Part shown: piece after piece, positions 3,974 through 47,381 of the stretch
Position numbering within the stretch: position 1 is the stretch's first letter
How the letters are laid out: the number at the start of each line of letters is the position of its first letter
Assembly (NCBI GenBank): GCA_035556695.1
Contig: DATMFR010000060.1
Span: 84-64,083, forward strand
Source of the DNA: Roseomonas sp.
Lineage (GTDB): Bacteria; Pseudomonadota; Alphaproteobacteria; Acetobacterales; Acetobacteraceae
Direction of reading: 5' to 3'
Length of the DNA: 64,000 nt
Notes under the pieces: generated by a model
The model's input: only the letters and a program-made list of their open reading frames with translations
What the model was told of the DNA's origin: nothing
Database searches by the model: none
Translations under genes and position numbers: made by a program

Positions 3974-4810
3974 ATGCCGCCCTCCCGCAAGCCCGCCTCG
4001 CCCGTGCTGGGCGCCGCCATCTCGGCCATCGGAGCCGCCAGCGACGGGCTGGTGCCGGGCGACAGCCGCTTCCGCCACTCCTTCGAGGCGCCGCTGGCGC
4101 GCATCCGTCCCGATCCCGGCCAACCGCGCAAGCGCTTCGAGCCGGCCGAGATCGCCGCCCTGGCAGCCACCATGGCCGCCGAGGGGCAGTTGCAGCCGGT
4201 GCTGCTGCGGCGCGACCCGGAACAGCGCGGCGGCTGGATCCTGGTTGCCGGCGAGCGTCGCTGGCGCGCCGCAAGGCACAATGGATGGACCAGCCTGCTG
4301 GCCATCGAGCACGCCGGAGATGCGGCGCTCGCGGCCCTGCTGGAGAACCTGCAGCGCGTGGACCTGACCCCCGCCGAGGAGGCGCGCGGCCTGCAACGCC
4401 TGCTGGCGGAGCGGGGCATGAGCCAGGCGGCCGCCGCCACCCTGCTGGGCCGCAGCCCGGCCGAGATCAGCGCCACGTTGCGGCTGCTGACCCTGCCGGA
4501 GGATTTCCTGGACCGGGCGGGCAATCTGCCGCGCAACCTGCTGGTGGAACTGGCGCGGCTGGAGCCGGGCCCCTTGCGTGACCGGATGCTGCGCCAGGCG
4601 GAGTCGGGCAGCCTGACCGTGCGTGCGCTGCGGGCGGCGCGTGCCGCGCCGGCTCCCGCGCCGAAGCCGCCATCCTCCCTCGGCGTCACGCTGAAGGGTT
4701 TGGCGGCGAAGCTGGAGCGCCGGAAAGCAGAGGGGCGGCCCCTGGCAGAAGAGGAGCGCGCGCATCTCACCGCGCTGCGGCAGCGGATCAACGCGCTGCT
4801 CGACTTCTGA
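3974..4810 (+). CDS. parB: ParB/RepB/Spo0J-family partition protein
   Basis: IRPDPGQPRKRF, GQLQPVLL, GERRWRAA, ENLQRVDL, HTH SQAAAATLLGRS; follows parA by 3 bp. Confidence 0.92.
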   Translation: MPPSRKPASPVLGAAISAIGAASDGLVPGDSRFRHSFEAPLARIRPDPGQPRKRFEPAEIAALAATMAAEGQLQPVLLRRDPEQRGGWILVAGERRWRAARHNGWTSLLAIEHAGDAALAALLENLQRVDLTPAEEARGLQRLLAERGMSQAAAATLLGRSPAEISATLRLLTLPEDFLDRAGNLPRNLLVELARLEPGPLRDRMLRQAESGSLTVRALRAARAAPAPAPKPPSSLGVTLKGLAAKLERRKAEGRPLAEEERAHLTALRQRINALLDF

Positions 4811-32852: not shown

Positions 32853-32862
32853 TGCGAAAAAC
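32853..32862 (+). promoter_or_regulatory. TGCGAAAAAC motif upstream of motB
   Basis: 58 bp upstream of motB ATG; overlaps a TGGCAC-N5-ATGC sigma54-like arrangement. Confidence 0.5.
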
Positions 32863-42323: not shown

Positions 42324-42333
42324 TGCGAAAAAC
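42324..42333 (+). promoter_or_regulatory. TGCGAAAAAC motif upstream of fliJ
   Basis: 86 bp before fliJ; an opposite-strand copy at 42401-42410 points at the protease. Confidence 0.5.
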
Positions 42334-42409: not shown

Positions 42410-42814
42410 ATGCGTAGCCTTCCTCTCCTGATCCGGTTGGCGCGGCAGCGCGCCGATGAGCGGCGGCTGGTGCTGGCTGTGGCCGAGCAGGCGCGGTTGG
42501 CAGCGGAGGCGGCGCTGACGGAACAGGAGGCGCGGATGGCCACCGAGCGGGCGCAGGCGGCTGGCGATCCCGAGGCCATGGCCCGCTGGGGAGAATGGTC
42601 ACGCGCCGCCGCGCGGCAGCGGCGGCGCCTACTAGAGGGGTTGGGGGCGCGACAGGAGCGCGAGGAGGCGATCCGCGCGGCGCTGGCGGAGGACTTCGCC
42701 GCCCTCAAGCGGCTGGAGCTTGCCCTGCAGGCGCAGCAGCGGAACGCGGCGCGCGAGAGGGAGCGCAAGGCGGAGAAGGCGGCAGAGGATACAGAGTTGC
42801 GGCGGCTCCGCTGA
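42410..42814 (+). CDS. fliJ: FliJ-like export protein
   Basis: MRSL..LIRLARQRADERR..L, coiled coil, F..LKRLE, D at C-terminus; size 134 aa typical. Confidence 0.75.
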   Translation: MRSLPLLIRLARQRADERRLVLAVAEQARLAAEAALTEQEARMATERAQAAGDPEAMARWGEWSRAAARQRRRLLEGLGARQEREEAIRAALAEDFAALKRLELALQAQQRNAARERERKAEKAAEDTELRRLR

Positions 42815-42833: not shown

Positions 42834-44579
42834 TCAGGCCGGCAGGCTGAGCCGCTCCAGGTCCGGCTTTTCCTTGAACCGGCTCCAGGCGCTCAGCAGC
42901 TCGCGCAGCTGCTCCTCCTGGCTGGTGCGCTCGCGCCGCAGGACCTGCATGCGGCGGCGCAGTTCCAGGATCAGGTGGCCGCGCGGCAGGTCGGCGCCGC
43001 TCTCGAAGCGCTCCAGGAAGATGCGGCCCAGCTCGGGATCGTCGCGCTCGATGCAGTAGGCGGCATAGGTCAGCACCGAGCCGCGGCCAAACTCGATCAT
43101 CTTGCGGCCGAAGGTGCGCAGCTCCAGCAGGCGCGGGTGCTGCTCGACGATGCGCATCACCTCCGCCGGCGTCGGCTTGGCGTTGCGCGTCCCTGCCGGC
43201 TTCAGCTCGCGCTTCCACAGCAGCACGGCGGCGGCGGCGATCAGCGGCTTGTCGCCGAAGCCGTCGAAGGCGGCGCCGAGCTGCGGCCCCTTCTTGGCGT
43301 GGATGTCGTAGGTGTCGTAGGCCTCCTCGGGGAGGTTGCGCATGACCGGCACCTCGATCGCCTCGCCCGCCTGGATCACGGCGGAGAGCCGGTGCTGGCC
43401 GTTCAGCAGCCGCCCCGAGCGGCTGAAGCAGATCGGCTGCGCGTTCATCATCCAGTTGCCGGCGCGGATGTCGCGGGCGATGGCGTCCACATGCGCGGCG
43501 ACGATTTTGCGGTTGCGTGTGTTGTGGCCGAGATAGGCCTCCGCCAGCTGCGGCGAGATAGTCTCGATCACCAGCGGAAAAACGTTCTCCTCCTGCACCA
43601 GGCGCTCGACCGCCTCGCGCAGCTTGCGCGCGGTCTCCTCGGTATCATCCGCATGGCCAGGATCGTTCAGCCCGGGGTAGCCCTGAAGCGCCGGGAACTC
43701 CTCGCCCTTGGTCGGGTTGGAGGTCTTGTCGATCCAGGTATAGGAGCGCAGATGCTCGCCGGTGAAGGTGGCGTTCAGCGCCTTGATACAGAGGGCGAAG
43801 AGCATTACCGGCTTGAGCCGTGTCGCCGGATCGCCGCGGGTGATGTCGATCAGGTCGCGGATGCGCGCGCCCGGCTCCATCGGCGAGTACTTCTCCGGCC
43901 AGGCGACGGCGTCGAGGAAGCGGCGCGTCGCCGTCTTGTCCACCCGGAATCCCATGAACAGCAGCGGCGTGCGCACCGCCTCGGAAAGCACGGTCGCCTC
44001 GCTTTCCAATGACATCTTCACCGCCTGCTCCAGGTCGGGATTGGCGCGCAGCACGCGGTCCATGCGCGACCAGGAGGCGGTGCCGGCGCCGCGCAGCATC
44101 TTGCCGTCGTCGTAGCGGATCAGCTTCACCAGCGCGGATTGCAGCGCATGCGCATGCGGCACGCCGCGTGCCTCCAGCACGCCGGCGAAGGAGCGGCGGC
44201 GCTGCTGGTCGATGGTGTGCAGCACGTCGTCGGGGATGTTCTGCGCCAGCACGGTGAGGAAGGGAACGCCGGCCTTGATACAGGCGCGCAGCCGCTGCAC
44301 GCCGTCGAGCAGCACGCCGGTGCGCGAGAGGATGAGGGGCATGCCGTTGAGGATCCAGCGGCCCTCCCGCATCGCCTCGGCATAGGCGTTGATGGCGTTG
44401 GGGTTCTCGGCGGCACTCGGGCGCTTGCGCTGCAGCAGCTCGGTCGCGCCTTCCGGCGTGACCAGCTCGACCGAGAAGGCGGGCCCATCGGGATTCTGGC
44501 CCTGGACCTGCACGATCCTGCCGCTCGGCGTGCGCGCTGCGGTCTTGCTCTTGCGTGCCGCCCCGTTCGCCCGTGCCAT
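42834..44579 (-). CDS. protein with two tandem ParB/sulfiredoxin-like (DGQHR-like) domains
   Basis: domain 1 VTPEGATELL..YAEAMREGRWILNG.P..LLDGVQRL; domain 2 ISPQLAEAYL.HNTRNRK..IARDI.AGNW.MN..PI..LLNGQHRL. Confidence 0.75.
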   Translation of the reverse strand: MARANGAARKSKTAARTPSGRIVQVQGQNPDGPAFSVELVTPEGATELLQRKRPSAAENPNAINAYAEAMREGRWILNGMPLILSRTGVLLDGVQRLRACIKAGVPFLTVLAQNIPDDVLHTIDQQRRRSFAGVLEARGVPHAHALQSALVKLIRYDDGKMLRGAGTASWSRMDRVLRANPDLEQAVKMSLESEATVLSEAVRTPLLFMGFRVDKTATRRFLDAVAWPEKYSPMEPGARIRDLIDITRGDPATRLKPVMLFALCIKALNATFTGEHLRSYTWIDKTSNPTKGEEFPALQGYPGLNDPGHADDTEETARKLREAVERLVQEENVFPLVIETISPQLAEAYLGHNTRNRKIVAAHVDAIARDIRAGNWMMNAQPICFSRSGRLLNGQHRLSAVIQAGEAIEVPVMRNLPEEAYDTYDIHAKKGPQLGAAFDGFGDKPLIAAAAVLLWKRELKPAGTRNAKPTPAEVMRIVEQHPRLLELRTFGRKMIEFGRGSVLTYAAYCIERDDPELGRIFLERFESGADLPRGHLILELRRRMQVLRRERTSQEEQLRELLSAWSRFKEKPDLERLSLPA

Positions 44580-45019
44580 CGGTTTCTCTCTCCGTCCCGC
44601 TACGCTGTGCTGGTCAGACCCCTGGCCGGGGCCGGGCAGCGAATAATCGCCTGGGTGATCGCCGGCGGTTTCGCCCGTTTAGAGTTTTTTCGCTCTTTAA
44701 GCTAGATGCAAAAATCTCCAACAGGAAAAAGATTTTCTCTGGATGGCTTTTCGCAGAAGAATGCTGCGGCGAAGCCAAGTTCAACAAGATCAAAGGGTAA
44801 CCCGTTCGGATAAGATCTGACCTTAGGGATTTCTTCACCATGTTCTCAAACCTCGGAATAGAAGCTTGTCCTGCATGATGCTAAATACGATGGGCTTTCT
44901 GATGAAAACGCATTTCGTGCAGTAAGGCAGGCCGGGCGCGCCTCCCTCCGAGGGCGCCGACAGCCTGTGCGCGCCATGCACCTGATCCCTCGTCCCCGCA
45001 GGAAGGAGAATCCCTCCCC

Positions 45020-45346
45020 ATGACCGGATCCAGCCCCTTCTTCGTCAACCACACTATCCGCCTGAGCCGCGCTGAGGTGCTTGAGGCCCTGCGTGGCGCC
45101 GCGCTGGCGCGGGCGCGCGAGGCGCTGCGCCTGGTGGAGCCCGCCCCGCGCGGCGTGGAGATGGAAACCCGTCTGCTCTCCGGCTCGGTGGTGGAGATCG
45201 ATGGTGCCACCATCGTGATTGAAGGCCGTTTGCCGGATGACTTGGCCGCGCTGCTGCGCACGGCACCGGCGAGCACCGTTCCGGCCGCTCCCCTGCCGAC
45301 CGCGGCCATTGCCGAGCCGGTGGACGAGCCGCTGGTCGCCGCCTGA
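45020..45346 (+). CDS. hypothetical protein
   Basis: GGAAGGAGA RBS; 108 aa; no family recognised. Confidence 0.6.
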   Translation: MTGSSPFFVNHTIRLSRAEVLEALRGAALARAREALRLVEPAPRGVEMETRLLSGSVVEIDGATIVIEGRLPDDLAALLRTAPASTVPAAPLPTAAIAEPVDEPLVAA

Positions 45347-45577
45347 CGGCCTCGCCGCATCGCGTCCCTTTTCGGGGGCGCGGTGCCCTTGCGCCCTGCT
45401 CCCAGGGCGCCGGCTTTGCTGTGCATGGCGTTCATGGTCATGCGAAATACCACAATTTAGTTGGTTCGCGCGCCTGCCCCTGGGGCTCGGCTGCATTTTG
45501 CGGTGCCGATCGCACAAGACCCTTGCCTTGACCCGCCGGGATCGGTCTTCTGCTCACACTAATGTGAGGCTGGCGAT

Positions 45578-46489
45578 ATGCTGACGCGCGTGCGTCCGGG
45601 ACAGGATGGAAGCTGGCAGGCCGTGCTGGGCCAGGCCGCCATGGGCTTCGGCCGTGACGGCTTTCCCGACCGTGCCGCCGCGGAGGACTGGGCGGCGCGC
45701 GCCGGTCTGGCCGCCCGCGAGTGTACCATCCGCATCGGCAGCAAGCGTTTCCTGGGCACCGCCGCCGAAGCGCTCCGCCGCTGGGCGATCGACCAGGGTA
45801 CCCTGCCCCGTGCCGAGGGCGGCACCCAGGTGGCGCCGCTGCAGCGCCTGGCACCACTGCTGGAGGACTCCGACTGCGCCCTTCCTCTGGCCGTGTTGTC
45901 GCCCGAGGATCTCTCGGCCCTGCGCCGCCGACGGCTGGTTGCCCTGCAGGACACCGCCGCCATGCTGGCTGAGCAGGCCGCCATGGCGGCGGCGCTGGAG
46001 CAGTTCCGCGACTTCCACCTGCCGGCGCTGGACGATCCTTTCGGCGAGATTGCGCCGGATGGCTTGTGCGTGCTGGACGAGCCGAGCTGCGCCCAGGCCA
46101 TCGGTTGGGCCGGACAAATGAGCGAGGCCTGGGGGCGCTTCGTCGCCCTGTTGCTGCTCACGGGCGCGCCCGTTCCCACGCTGCTTGGCGCCTGCTGCGG
46201 GCATGCGGATGCACGGAGCGGCCGGCTGCATCTGCCGGGCGGCCCGGTGCTGACGCCGCCACCTGACCTGTTCCCCGCCCCCGCCGCGGCACCCGAAGCG
46301 CCATTGCTGCCTGGTCTGCAGGCGGCGGGAGTGGTCGCTGAGGGAATGCGGGAGATCGGCAGGCGCCTGCAGCGTCCGGGGCTGCGACCGGAGGCGCTGC
46401 AGCTGACGGCGCTGGTGGCCGCCCTGAACCAGGGACAGCACCTGGACGAGATCCTGATCCTTGCGGGTGCCCTGAAGAGGGCACGGTAG
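45578..46489 (+). CDS. tyrosine-recombinase-fold protein lacking catalytic residues
   Basis: integrase-like WQA..FPDRAAAEDWA, AEALRRW, LSPEDLSALRRRRL; catalytic boxes degenerate: LLTGAP (for TGMR), GLRPEALQL (for GLRFHDLRH), LAGA (for SGH); ends before the Tyr. Confidence 0.6.
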   Translation: MLTRVRPGQDGSWQAVLGQAAMGFGRDGFPDRAAAEDWAARAGLAARECTIRIGSKRFLGTAAEALRRWAIDQGTLPRAEGGTQVAPLQRLAPLLEDSDCALPLAVLSPEDLSALRRRRLVALQDTAAMLAEQAAMAAALEQFRDFHLPALDDPFGEIAPDGLCVLDEPSCAQAIGWAGQMSEAWGRFVALLLLTGAPVPTLLGACCGHADARSGRLHLPGGPVLTPPPDLFPAPAAAPEAPLLPGLQAAGVVAEGMREIGRRLQRPGLRPEALQLTALVAALNQGQHLDEILILAGALKRAR

Positions 46490-46513
46490 AGGGCGATTTG
46501 TCGCCACAGATTG

Positions 46514-46546
46514 TGCGAAAAAGTTTGCGGAAAGAGCGCGAAAAAA
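46514..46546 (+). promoter_or_regulatory. three tandem TGCGAAAA-like motifs upstream of bactofilin
   Basis: TGCGAAAAAG (46514), TGCGGAAA (46526), CGCGAAAAAA (46537); about one helical turn apart. Confidence 0.55.
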
Positions 46547-46604
46547 GTAGAAGGGGATGGCGGTGCGGTCCACCTGCACCAGGCCTCCTAGAACGGGATT
46601 GCAC

Positions 46605-47381
46605 ATGAGCTTCTTCGGAAAGCCAAGCGGTGGAGAGCCGCGCATCACTTACGAGCGCATCGACCTCGCGGCCGAACCGCCCGGTGCGCCGGTGGAGCCC
46701 CTGCCTCTAGCCGGCGCACGCAGCCTGGCGGACCGGCTGGAGCCGCGCATCGATCGTGCGAAAACAAATCATGATGCGCCTGCCGAAGCGGGCATGATGC
46801 TGGTGTCTGCCGACAGCGAGGTGGAAGGCGAGCTGCGCAGCCGCGGCGCGGTGCGCGTCGAGGGCGTGCTGCGGGGCAGCCTGCATGCACCCCTGCTGCT
46901 GCTGGAACCGGGTGGGCTGGTGGAGGGCACGGTGCATGTGGAGCGCGCGCGCCTCTGCGGCACCCTGCGCGGCACTCTGATCGCCCGCGAGGTGGAAGTG
47001 GTCCGCACCGCTGCGCTGGACGCCGAACTGGTCTATGACGAGATCAGCATCGAGCGCGGCGCACGCGTGCGCGGCCTGCACCGCCAGCGCGACCCCGAGC
47101 CGGCGGCCGAAGTGGCGCCGGAGGCCCTGGTTCTGCCGGAGGCGGAGGCGGAGGCCGAGGCGGACAGGCCGGATCCGGCGCTGCTGGCCGCTGCGGCGGC
47201 TAGCACGGCGGCGCTGGTGGCAGAGGCGGAGGCAGCCCTTCAGGAGCTCGCGCAGGCCACCCAGGCGGCCGCGGGCGCGGTGACCGAGCTGGCTCAGGAC
47301 GGCATCCAGGATCTGGTCGATCTGGAGGCCGAGCTGCGCGAGACGCCGGAGAAGATGTTGCGCGACCCGCTCGCCGCCTGA
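46605..47381 (+). CDS. bactofilin (polymer-forming cytoskeletal protein)
   Basis: VSADSEVEGEL...VRVEGVLRGSL...GLVEGTV...LCGTLRGTL...AELVYDEISIERGARVRG beta-helix repeats; acidic helical tail. Confidence 0.88.
   Translation: MSFFGKPSGGEPRITYERIDLAAEPPGAPVEPLPLAGARSLADRLEPRIDRAKTNHDAPAEAGMMLVSADSEVEGELRSRGAVRVEGVLRGSLHAPLLLLEPGGLVEGTVHVERARLCGTLRGTLIAREVEVVRTAALDAELVYDEISIERGARVRGLHRQRDPEPAAEVAPEALVLPEAEAEAEADRPDPALLAAAAASTAALVAEAEAALQELAQATQAAAGAVTELAQDGIQDLVDLEAELRETPEKMLRDPLAA

Follow-up and report, generated by a model that had tools for sequence, protein, structure and literature searches.

The ParB-type switches that use cytidine triphosphate (CTP), such as ParB, Noc and KorB, are homodimers that act on palindromic sites. 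KorB, a ParB-family global transcriptional regulator, has its operators at many of the promoters on plasmid RK2, which encodes it; it is a homodimer, reads a palindromic operator and works with KorA/IncC. PadC of Myxococcus, a ParB/Srx-type CTP binder, links ParA to BacNOP. Here we describe a protein, P0001, in which two units predicted to have this type of fold are joined in a single chain. Its gene lies among flagellar genes of a Roseomonas sp. (Acetobacteraceae; GenBank assembly GCA_035556695.1) in a stretch of 64,000 nucleotides, hereafter the window, which covers positions 84 to 64,083 of contig DATMFR010000060.1 (C60). At many loci that carry the gene, a short directional word, TGCGAAAA, is locally enriched. 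We suggest, tentatively, that P0001 is a regulator that binds this box, and weigh that reading against three others.

One chain, two unequal units

The gene and the parts of its product are as follows.

42834 to 44579, minus strand: gene of the tandem ParB/Srx-like protein P0001, 581 amino acids, an open frame without stops
43680 to 44492, minus strand: unit 1, a ParB/Srx-like N-domain plus a helical domain, with a degenerate motif (residues about 30-300; hmmsearch envelope 30-300)
44292 to 44306, minus strand: DGVQR (D92-R96), the degenerate counterpart of GQHR, with D92, G93, Q95 and R96 invariant in 26 orthologs
42846 to 43592, minus strand: unit 2, the canonical family unit (residues about 330-578, from phrog_5931, the model of the C-terminal half and Foldseek)
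43389 to 43403, minus strand: NGQHR (N393-R397), invariant in 26 orthologs and in single-unit relatives

The open frame is a real gene, with a strong coding signature (G+C of 0.92 at third and 0.46 at second codon positions, in DNA of 70% G+C). Its start, ATGGCACGG, and the GGAG-rich leader 5' of it are kept in 11 orthologs. About 340 homologs were found, with identities of 82-96% in Pseudoroseomonas, Roseomonas and Teichococcus and of about 53-55% in Rhodopila and Rhodovastum. The Prokaryotic Genome Annotation Pipeline labels some orthologs “ParB/RepB/Spo0J family partition protein” and others “hypothetical.” The N-terminus of P0001 is basic and disordered.

The original prediction, made from the letters of the DNA, was of a protein with two tandem ParB/DGQHR-like nucleotide-binding domains, and its division into two homologous halves holds. 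BLASTP of residues 1-311 against 312-581 gives an E-value of 5e-13 (54.3 bits; 39 of 120 positions identical, or 33%, with residues 8-124 aligned on 317-425), and hhalign of the two half-profiles, built from 26 orthologs, gives a probability of 98.5% (E 1.5e-15). Because the half-profiles align across 208 columns, the helical part was duplicated as well and not the N-domain alone. In distant tandem relatives either half-profile matches each half over the whole unit of about 250 residues, single-unit proteins of 260-300 amino acids match both equally, and unit 1 has the strands and helices of unit 2. The strings on which the division had been based are present (VTPEGATELL and ISPQLAEAYL, YAEAMREGRWILNGMPLI and IARDIRAGNWMMNAQPIC, LLDGVQRL and LLNGQHRL), and both motifs fall within the ranges given for them. 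Only the pattern drawn from them needs correction: LL(D/N)G..(R/H)RL has one residue too many and should read LL(D/N)GxxRL.

The two units are not equivalent. Across 111 diverse tandem representatives, chosen so that mutual identity was no more than about 50%, GQHR in its (N/D)GQHR form is found in the C-terminal half of 104, compared with a canonical QH in the N-terminal half of 2. The N-terminal motif of these proteins is DGxxR, its two middle residues nearly free, while LL(N/D)GQHRL is invariant in the single-unit relatives. The asymmetry is thus a property of the whole tandem family, and the duplication is therefore old; one unit appears to have kept the ancestral pocket and the other to have specialised. 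The pair had been described as one active and one inactive domain. The asymmetry in that description stands, but “inactive” is too strong for the first half, since D92, G93, Q95 and R96 are invariant among the 26 orthologs, in which both halves are under strong purifying selection.

Searches with the sequence place P0001 in a family of phage proteins. The uncharacterised phage family phrog_5931 matches both halves, in two stretches (E 7.4e-85), the better of which puts residues 337-576 on profile positions 11-261 of 282, and ParB-like PHROGs match residues 351-415 weakly (8e-5). Curated collections add little: Pfam at E≤1 gives no family, NCBIfam at E≤1 only two irrelevant sub-threshold matches, PADLOC no match, and sequence searches of PDB, with the single sequence or a profile, nothing relevant. 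With E≤1e-3 as the limit, an exhaustive search for the family itself returned 20,149 cluster representatives, and with E≤1e-30 it returned 153; the tandem form is still recognisable at 27% identity.

The fold brings in ParB. The full-length AlphaFold model of P0001 is mediocre (predicted local distance difference test, pLDDT, 75.5; predicted template modelling score, pTM, 0.50), and a fold search with it gave nothing significant; the only ParB/Srx-fold match was SbnI (probability 0.63, rank 5). For these reasons the C-terminal half was modelled alone. For residues 312-581, an alignment of 28 sequences gave a confident AlphaFold2 model (pLDDT 89.2, pTM 0.76), and its first six Foldseek matches in PDB are ParB-family structures, all with the DNA-binding domain. 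They are led by 7bnr, the ParB of M. xanthus (probability 1.00, E 7.5e-3, template modelling score, TM, 0.36/0.46), and comprise in addition 7bnk, 7o0n, two chains of 5k5d (pNOB8 ParB-N) and 7ol9 (Noc); the three M. xanthus structures 7bnr, 7bnk and 7o0n carry CTPgammaS or cytidine diphosphate. Since the alignments run to about 240 columns, they cover both the N-domain and the helical DNA-binding domain.

Among predicted viral structures (BFVD), the same model finds single-unit phage proteins (TM 0.6-0.77; lowest E 4e-14) with annotations that in some cases read “HTH DNA binding” (HTH, helix-turn-helix) or “ParB-like nuclease.” Weaker viral matches are to proteins annotated ParB/Srx, GmrSD-N (DUF262) and DndB-like. 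Those to GmrSD-N and to “DNA-sulfur modification-associated” proteins have E of 2e-3 to 1e-2, and for DUF262 as a whole E is 2e-3 to 1.6e-2 with TM below 0.3. For DUF262 there is likewise no Pfam match, and P0001 has no nuclease domain.

The ParB/Srx domains first proposed for both halves are thus borne out by the predicted fold of the C-terminal half and not by the ParB_N profile, which gives no match; by the model, the reading holds for fold and not for curated family membership. Membership of the DGQHR domain did not survive: the Pfam and NCBIfam models do not match, and what P0001 has in common with it is the five-residue signature NGQHR. The GERRxR arginine patch of ParB is replaced at the motif position by NGQHR in unit 2 and DGVQR in unit 1. 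When the family profile was aligned by hhalign with the plasmid's own ParB as a single sequence, NGQHR fell opposite GERRW, with a probability of 0.1 that is not significant; comparison of the modelled fold would put the GQHR pocket of unit 2 at ParB's CTP site.

The module is also found in other combinations. Some family members join the tandem module to GAF and a HisKA_2/HATPase_c kinase, or to GAF alone; in another variant a RepB N-domain precedes the module; and in yet another the tail has AT-hook-like GRGRPRK repeats and Lys/Ala-rich sequence. One metagenomic tandem relative, P0200 (1011 amino acids), has a long C-terminal tail in which the AT-hook-like KRGRGRPRKNPPP is repeated and which is Lys/Ala/Pro-rich and histone-H1-like. 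In genome G006 (contig C8, locus L038:9409-12453), GAF and a HisKA_2 histidine kinase are joined to a paralog of 50% identity in a protein of 1014 amino acids. Its gene adjoins exosortase (EpsH), glycosyltransferase and CBM60 genes, with neither flagellar genes nor TGCGAAAA enrichment at the locus. Control of surface polysaccharide by such a kinase may be a further use of the tandem module.

A directional box on a probable flagellar plasmid

Contig C60 is 72,291 bp long and has identical ends of 141 bp, so it looks circular and is likely a complete plasmid. It carries a full flagellar gene set and its own ParAB, whose genes lie 38 kb from the tandem gene; no parA adjoins the latter, and its neighbours are flagellar. 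The regulators expected of such a set are absent from the plasmid: C60 has none of the genome's 10 Sigma70_r2, 8 Sigma54_activat and 12 Trans_reg_C matches, and a consensus scan of it found no TTAA-N7-TTAA (CtrA), no TGGCAC-N5-TTGC (sigma-54) and no sigma-28 site. The only recurrent promoter-proximal signal on C60 is TGCGAAAA.

This word occurs 18 times in the window, compared with 0.85 expected from shuffles, and 24 of its 43 copies in the genome are on the 72 kb of C60. Longer forms are more concentrated still on this 1.4% of the genome (17 of 19 for TGCGAAAAA; 19 of 22 for GCGAAAAAT). Most copies of TGCGAAAA are intergenic and aimed at the next gene, some 30-170 nt ahead of its start, and 138 sites from three groups of loci give the consensus ttTGCGAAAAAt. 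Two familiar promoter designs were tried on these sites and set aside. There is no second conserved position within 25 nt on either side in the 138 sites, as a two-box promoter would have, and the copy at 32853 fits the sigma-54 pattern TGGCAC-N6-TGC where the other copies do not.

Ahead of P0001 itself there are two copies.

44748 to 44755, minus strand: distal TGCGAAAA box, kept as (T/A)GCGAAA in close relatives
44676 to 44715, minus strand: conserved upstream block ATTTTTGC-N14-GAGCGAAAAAACTCTAAACG, the most conserved non-coding stretch in an alignment of 12 upstream regions

The distal copy had been pointed out from the start as co-oriented with the gene, and so it is, 168 nt before the ATG. 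The proximal copy is a variant, GAGCGAAAAAAC (GCGAAAA, 44687-44693), within the conserved block. With two box copies upstream, the proximal one in the best-conserved non-coding block, autoregulation of the tandem gene is possible. Between orf108 and the tandem gene there is a second conserved non-coding block, TTTAGCATC...CCATTCCGGGGTTTGAGAACATGGTGAAG, at 44820-44880 (read on the minus strand); it could be the promoter of orf108 or a short upstream open reading frame (ORF) from 44841.

Box enrichment across loci

Local tests matched for composition were used to compare loci, because G+C content and word-rich genomes such as G085 confound the genome-wide counts of TGCGAAAAA in 201 Acetobacteraceae, which were tried as a measure and dropped. 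For each locus of about 20 kb, the count of TGCGAAAA was ranked against those of 839 other words of the same composition. The 22 listed Acetobacteraceae loci with the gene, about 20 of them distinct and with one contig entered twice, have a median of 5 copies, and TGCGAAAA is the top of the 840 words in 13 of the 22. In 17 flagellar loci from Acetobacteraceae genomes without the gene, the median is 0 and the word is never top. The same holds in the Rhodobacteraceae, where four loci with the gene have 9-12 copies, and the top word in all four, compared with 0-2 copies (4 in one case), and never the top word, in 20 flagellar loci without it. One-sided Mann-Whitney tests give p values of 4e-7 for the Acetobacteraceae contrast and 1e-3 for the Rhodobacteraceae, which overstate the evidence because the loci are related to one another. 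None of the 37 flagellar loci without the tandem gene, then, is enriched in TGCGAAAA.

Three non-flagellar loci matter most for the link between gene and box. Loci of Amorphus, Halovulum and a Paracoccus plasmid contain 5, 4 and 7 copies of TGCGAAAA, which is the top word or near it; none of the queried flagellar genes lies within 10 kb, and the tandem gene is the only gene that the three have in common with the Roseomonas plasmid. The Paracoccus locus (Paracoccus sp. ME4 plasmid, NZ_CP151277.1 310141-331856) is 22 kb long and has its 7 copies around a 35%-identical homolog whose neighbours are topoisomerase, SNF2-helicase, VanY and FtsH-like genes. That the word tracks the gene across bacterial orders points to sequence-specific regulation rather than only to the “sensor” that had been imagined.

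The box could, of course, be read by another factor, with P0001 a mere member of the regulon. This factor might be a host sigma or transcription factor, the 303-aa protein encoded near the tandem gene, or a factor such as FlbT/FlaF that works at the RNA level on 5' untranslated regions (UTRs), and P0001 would then have a different job, for example as an enzyme or sensor of the ParB/Srx type, dependent on a nucleotide, that works on a flagellar component. The box precedes the tandem gene just as it precedes structural genes, and in some genomes that lack the gene the word is frequent. In Rhodobacteraceae the close spacing of box and start would fit a -10 or UTR element, and the loci carry their own sigma factor, a 246-aa sigma-70-family protein encoded between fliK and motB (L083:7344-8084, minus strand, and equivalents in L078-L080). 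As for a different job, ParB/Srx folds include enzymes such as SbnI, the best ParB/Srx-fold match of the full-length model, and the GAF-histidine kinase fusions suggest a signalling module.

Set against this are the enrichment of the box at non-flagellar loci whose only gene in common with the plasmid is the tandem gene, and the lack of enrichment in the 37 flagellar loci without it. Neither the Acetobacteraceae loci nor the Roseomonas genome has a counterpart of the sigma factor, and the 303-aa gene is missing from most box-rich loci; since each is absent from box-rich loci, the tandem gene is the only candidate reader that is present wherever the box is enriched. A plasmid share of 17 of 19 for TGCGAAAAA would be odd for a host factor, and the second domain of the unit aligns with the DNA-binding domain of ParB. 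On balance another reader of the box seems rather unlikely, though it deserves to be taken seriously.

A candidate regulator and the case against it

The reading we favour, and hold at somewhat less than even confidence, is that P0001 is a pseudo-dimeric ParB-like regulator that binds the ttTGCGAAAAAt box. An old duplication would have fused two phage- or plasmid-borne DNA-binding units of the ParB/Srx type, each with a ParB-like N-domain and, behind it, a helical domain resembling the HTH domain of ParB, into a single-chain “pseudo-dimer.” Unit 2 would have kept the GQHR pocket, and unit 1 would have degenerated to DGxxR while staying under selection. The resulting asymmetric protein would bind an asymmetric, directional box, ttTGCGAAAAAt, that lies 30-170 bp upstream of most flagellar operons on the 72-kb plasmid. 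P0001 would thus be the cluster's own global regulator, with its own gene among those preceded by the box, in a role like that of KorB but with a non-palindromic operator.

A protein whose two halves differ would be expected to bind a site that is not a palindrome, and a regulator in contact with RNA polymerase would require a box in fixed orientation to the promoter. CTP or adenosine triphosphate at the canonical pocket of the C-terminal half, as located on the model, would probably, or at least plausibly, gate DNA binding or the closure of the two N-domains. As to the sign of regulation, we lean towards an activator, since the plasmid has no other regulator and no canonical promoter; the spacing of about 30 nt between box and start at some loci weighs against a firm choice. 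A wider claim, which we regard as doubtful, makes the pseudo-dimer the master transcription factor of a flagellar regulon that moves horizontally, often on plasmids, and in which the directional box of 8-10 bp replaces the logic of CtrA, sigma-54 and sigma-28, possibly under the control of CTP or another nucleoside triphosphate. On that view P0001 would be a new class of flagellar master regulator and a natural ParB switch in a single chain.

Several observations count against P0001 as the reader of the box. The link between protein and box is a co-occurrence across related loci. In Rhodobacteraceae the box can end about 30 nt before the start codon, with GGAG between them, and such a spacing suits a -10-like element, one close to the transcription start site or one in the 5' UTR better than a classical activator site. 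A box of 8-10 bp is also short for two HTH domains. Genome G085, of the same family, in which no tandem gene was found, has 105 copies of TGCGAAAAA compared with 2 of the reversed control. A large regulon with the same word could account for these copies, as could a repeat element, and in word-rich genomes of this kind another factor may therefore read it.

Not every relative of the gene goes with the box, either. Paralog loci of 41-50% identity (the GAF-kinase fusion of G006 and the unfused L073, L074 and L086) have 0-1 copies of TGCGAAAA. A search for co-variation of protein and box in very distant relatives brought up one further genome, G407, among 400 Alphaproteobacteria, and its 32%-identical tandem homolog has 1 copy at its locus, with no enrichment. 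A comparison of box-linked and box-free relatives gave six scattered candidate positions for specificity, which is not informative. As regards the fold, the E-values in PDB are modest (7.5e-3), and a six-frame search of the genome with ParB_N (PF02195) at E≤10 does not match the P0001 locus; the same search recovers three ParBs, on contigs C1, C60 (window about 4085-4354) and C4. Finally, the gene is rare, being found in about 5 of 201 sampled Acetobacteraceae where FlaF is found in 161 of 201, so it is no general requirement for flagella. It is the correlative linkage, the spacing of about 30 nt, the word-rich genomes without the gene and the shortness of the box for two HTH domains that keep our confidence in this regulator below even.

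Neighbouring genes and spread of the family

Within the window, the genes run in the order motB, flgE, flgK, flgL, flgI, small ORFs, a trypsin-like protease, the FliJ-like coiled coil and the tandem gene. They continue with orf108, the 303-aa protein, a bactofilin, orf147, a flgJ-like gene and a FlgN-like ORF, and end with an 833-aa flagellin, flaF, flbT, DUF1217 and fliI. The neighbours that concern us are on the opposite strand to P0001.

42410 to 42814, plus strand: convergent neighbour, a 134-aa coiled-coil protein, Arg/Ala/Glu-rich and helical, adjoining the tandem gene at almost every orthologous locus
45020 to 47381, plus strand: divergent neighbours, namely orf108, the 303-aa protein (45578-46489) and the bactofilin (46605-47381), present in only part of the clade

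The coiled-coil neighbour is probably FliJ, by its sequence, and its gene has its own TGCGAAAA box at 42324. A 111-aa ortholog of orf108 (window 45020-45346) on the plasmid of P. cervicalis (L097:11300-11635) is called “methionyl-tRNA synthetase” in RefSeq, an implausible name for a protein of this size and setting and probably an artefact of annotation.

A search with the ortholog alignment recovered 58 genome loci. Of about 35 loci with at least 50% identity and enough flanking sequence, nearly all have the FliJ-like gene on one side and flgJ-(orf122)-flagellin-flaF-flbT-DUF1217-fliI on the other. In Rhodobacteraceae (Neptunicoccus, Amylibacter and a Roseobacter sp.) 35%-identical homologs stand directly after motB, in a cluster that also holds flgG, flgA, flgH, flgD, fliK and the sigma-70-family gene. 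The flagellar connection that had been supposed from the window is thus upheld by the fliJ/flgJ synteny, by the place after motB in Rhodobacteraceae and by the shared upstream word.

The bactofilin gene, 2 kb away, raises the question of a spatial role, in which P0001 would be a ParB-like adaptor that tethers DNA or partners to a bactofilin scaffold at the flagellar pole, or that marks the flagellar locus for positioning. There is a precedent in the PadC-bactofilin system of Myxococcus (PMC5703909), in which a ParB/Srx-type CTP binder is tied to bactofilins, and the basic, disordered N-terminus of P0001 would suit such an adaptor. The bactofilin gene recurs at the loci of Pseudoroseomonas, Belnapia, Rhodovastum and some metagenome-assembled genomes. 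The block of orf108, the 303-aa gene and the bactofilin is, however, missing from most orthologous loci of at most 55% identity, where flgJ follows directly, and the bactofilin is absent from the Rhodobacteraceae loci as well. No ParA/MinD-type gene adjoins the tandem gene, and its co-occurrence with the box at non-flagellar loci would go unexplained, so that a spatial organiser is decidedly unlikely.

The spread of the gene brings up yet another idea, that P0001 is a phage or plasmid passenger with a function in maintenance, partition-like behaviour, nuclease activity or anti-defence that merely rides with mobile flagellar clusters. The single-unit family is phage-borne (phrog_5931 and the BFVD matches), and an ortholog is carried by the complete plasmids from Pseudoroseomonas cervicalis (128.7 kb), Roseomonas marmotae (102.7 kb) and Rhodovastum atsumiense (220 kb). 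The first of these has a whole flagellar gene set together with RepA, ParAB, ParDE and MinCD, and its annotation includes no flagellar regulator. The Paracoccus homolog sits among topoisomerase and SNF2 genes, and the distribution is patchy, with 1 of 151 sampled Rhodobacteraceae besides the few Acetobacteraceae. A passenger would not be expected to keep the fliJ-flgJ position at 50% identity, including on contigs of chromosomal size (0.4-1.1 Mb), or to be under strong purifying selection in both halves; the plasmid has its own ParAB, and PADLOC gave no match. We consider a passenger very unlikely.

Comparison with known systems

No account of the P0001 family, of the TGCGAAAA box or of flagellar clusters with a ParB-like gene was found in the searchable literature, and a census of flagella in Rhodobacterales (PMC12363192) does not mention ParB. 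What is new within the ParB/Srx superfamily is the tandem architecture, the context and the candidate operator. With roughly 20,000 cluster representatives at E≤1e-3, the family is a large one that Pfam does not annotate. A natural single-chain ParB switch of two units, one with a canonical and one with a degenerate pocket, would be a ready system in which to study asymmetric gating. The cluster lacks the usual alphaproteobacterial flagellar regulators and promoter types, and one dominant directional word and a DNA-binding-type protein travel together in at least three orders. If gene and box are cognate, they would form a new portable regulatory module for flagella, and elsewhere for plasmid genes, which would help to explain how plasmid flagellar clusters can work after horizontal transfer, independent of host regulators.

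The best structural matches of a P0001 unit are ParB (7BNR), pNOB8 ParB and Noc, and in all of them an N-domain is followed by a helical domain of the DNA-binding type. In contrast to ParB, P0001 has no ParB_N profile match even at E≤10, and GQHR/DGVQR takes the place of the arginine patch. ParB is a homodimer with a C-terminal dimerisation domain, whereas P0001 is two fused, unequal units. The partners of ParB, parA and the palindromic parS, are both missing from the P0001 locus, and the true ParAB of the plasmid is encoded separately.

With the DGQHR/DndB and DUF262 (GmrSD N-terminal) proteins P0001 has in common the (D/N)GQ(H/Q)R signature in a fold of the ParB/Srx type; it differs from them in that it has no nuclease domain and that dnd, ssp and restriction genes are absent from its surroundings. 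The likeness to PadC is that of a ParB/Srx-type protein encoded near a bactofilin gene, but this pairing is found in only part of the clade, with no ParA partner and with another domain architecture. P0001 is a true member of the family of the single-unit phrog_5931 proteins, as both profile and fold (TM 0.6-0.77) attest. These proteins, known from the Mycobacterium phages Mercurio, Estes and Baee, have 260-320 amino acids and one unit, whereas P0001 is a tandem that has become fixed in cellular flagellar clusters.

The closest functional comparison is with KorB. P0001 would differ from it as a fused, heterologous pair with a directional candidate operator, itself a prediction, and with flagellar genes as its targets. 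What likens the two is a plasmid-encoded protein of the ParB type and a short putative operator that is repeated at promoters, here with 24 copies of TGCGAAAA on 72 kb.

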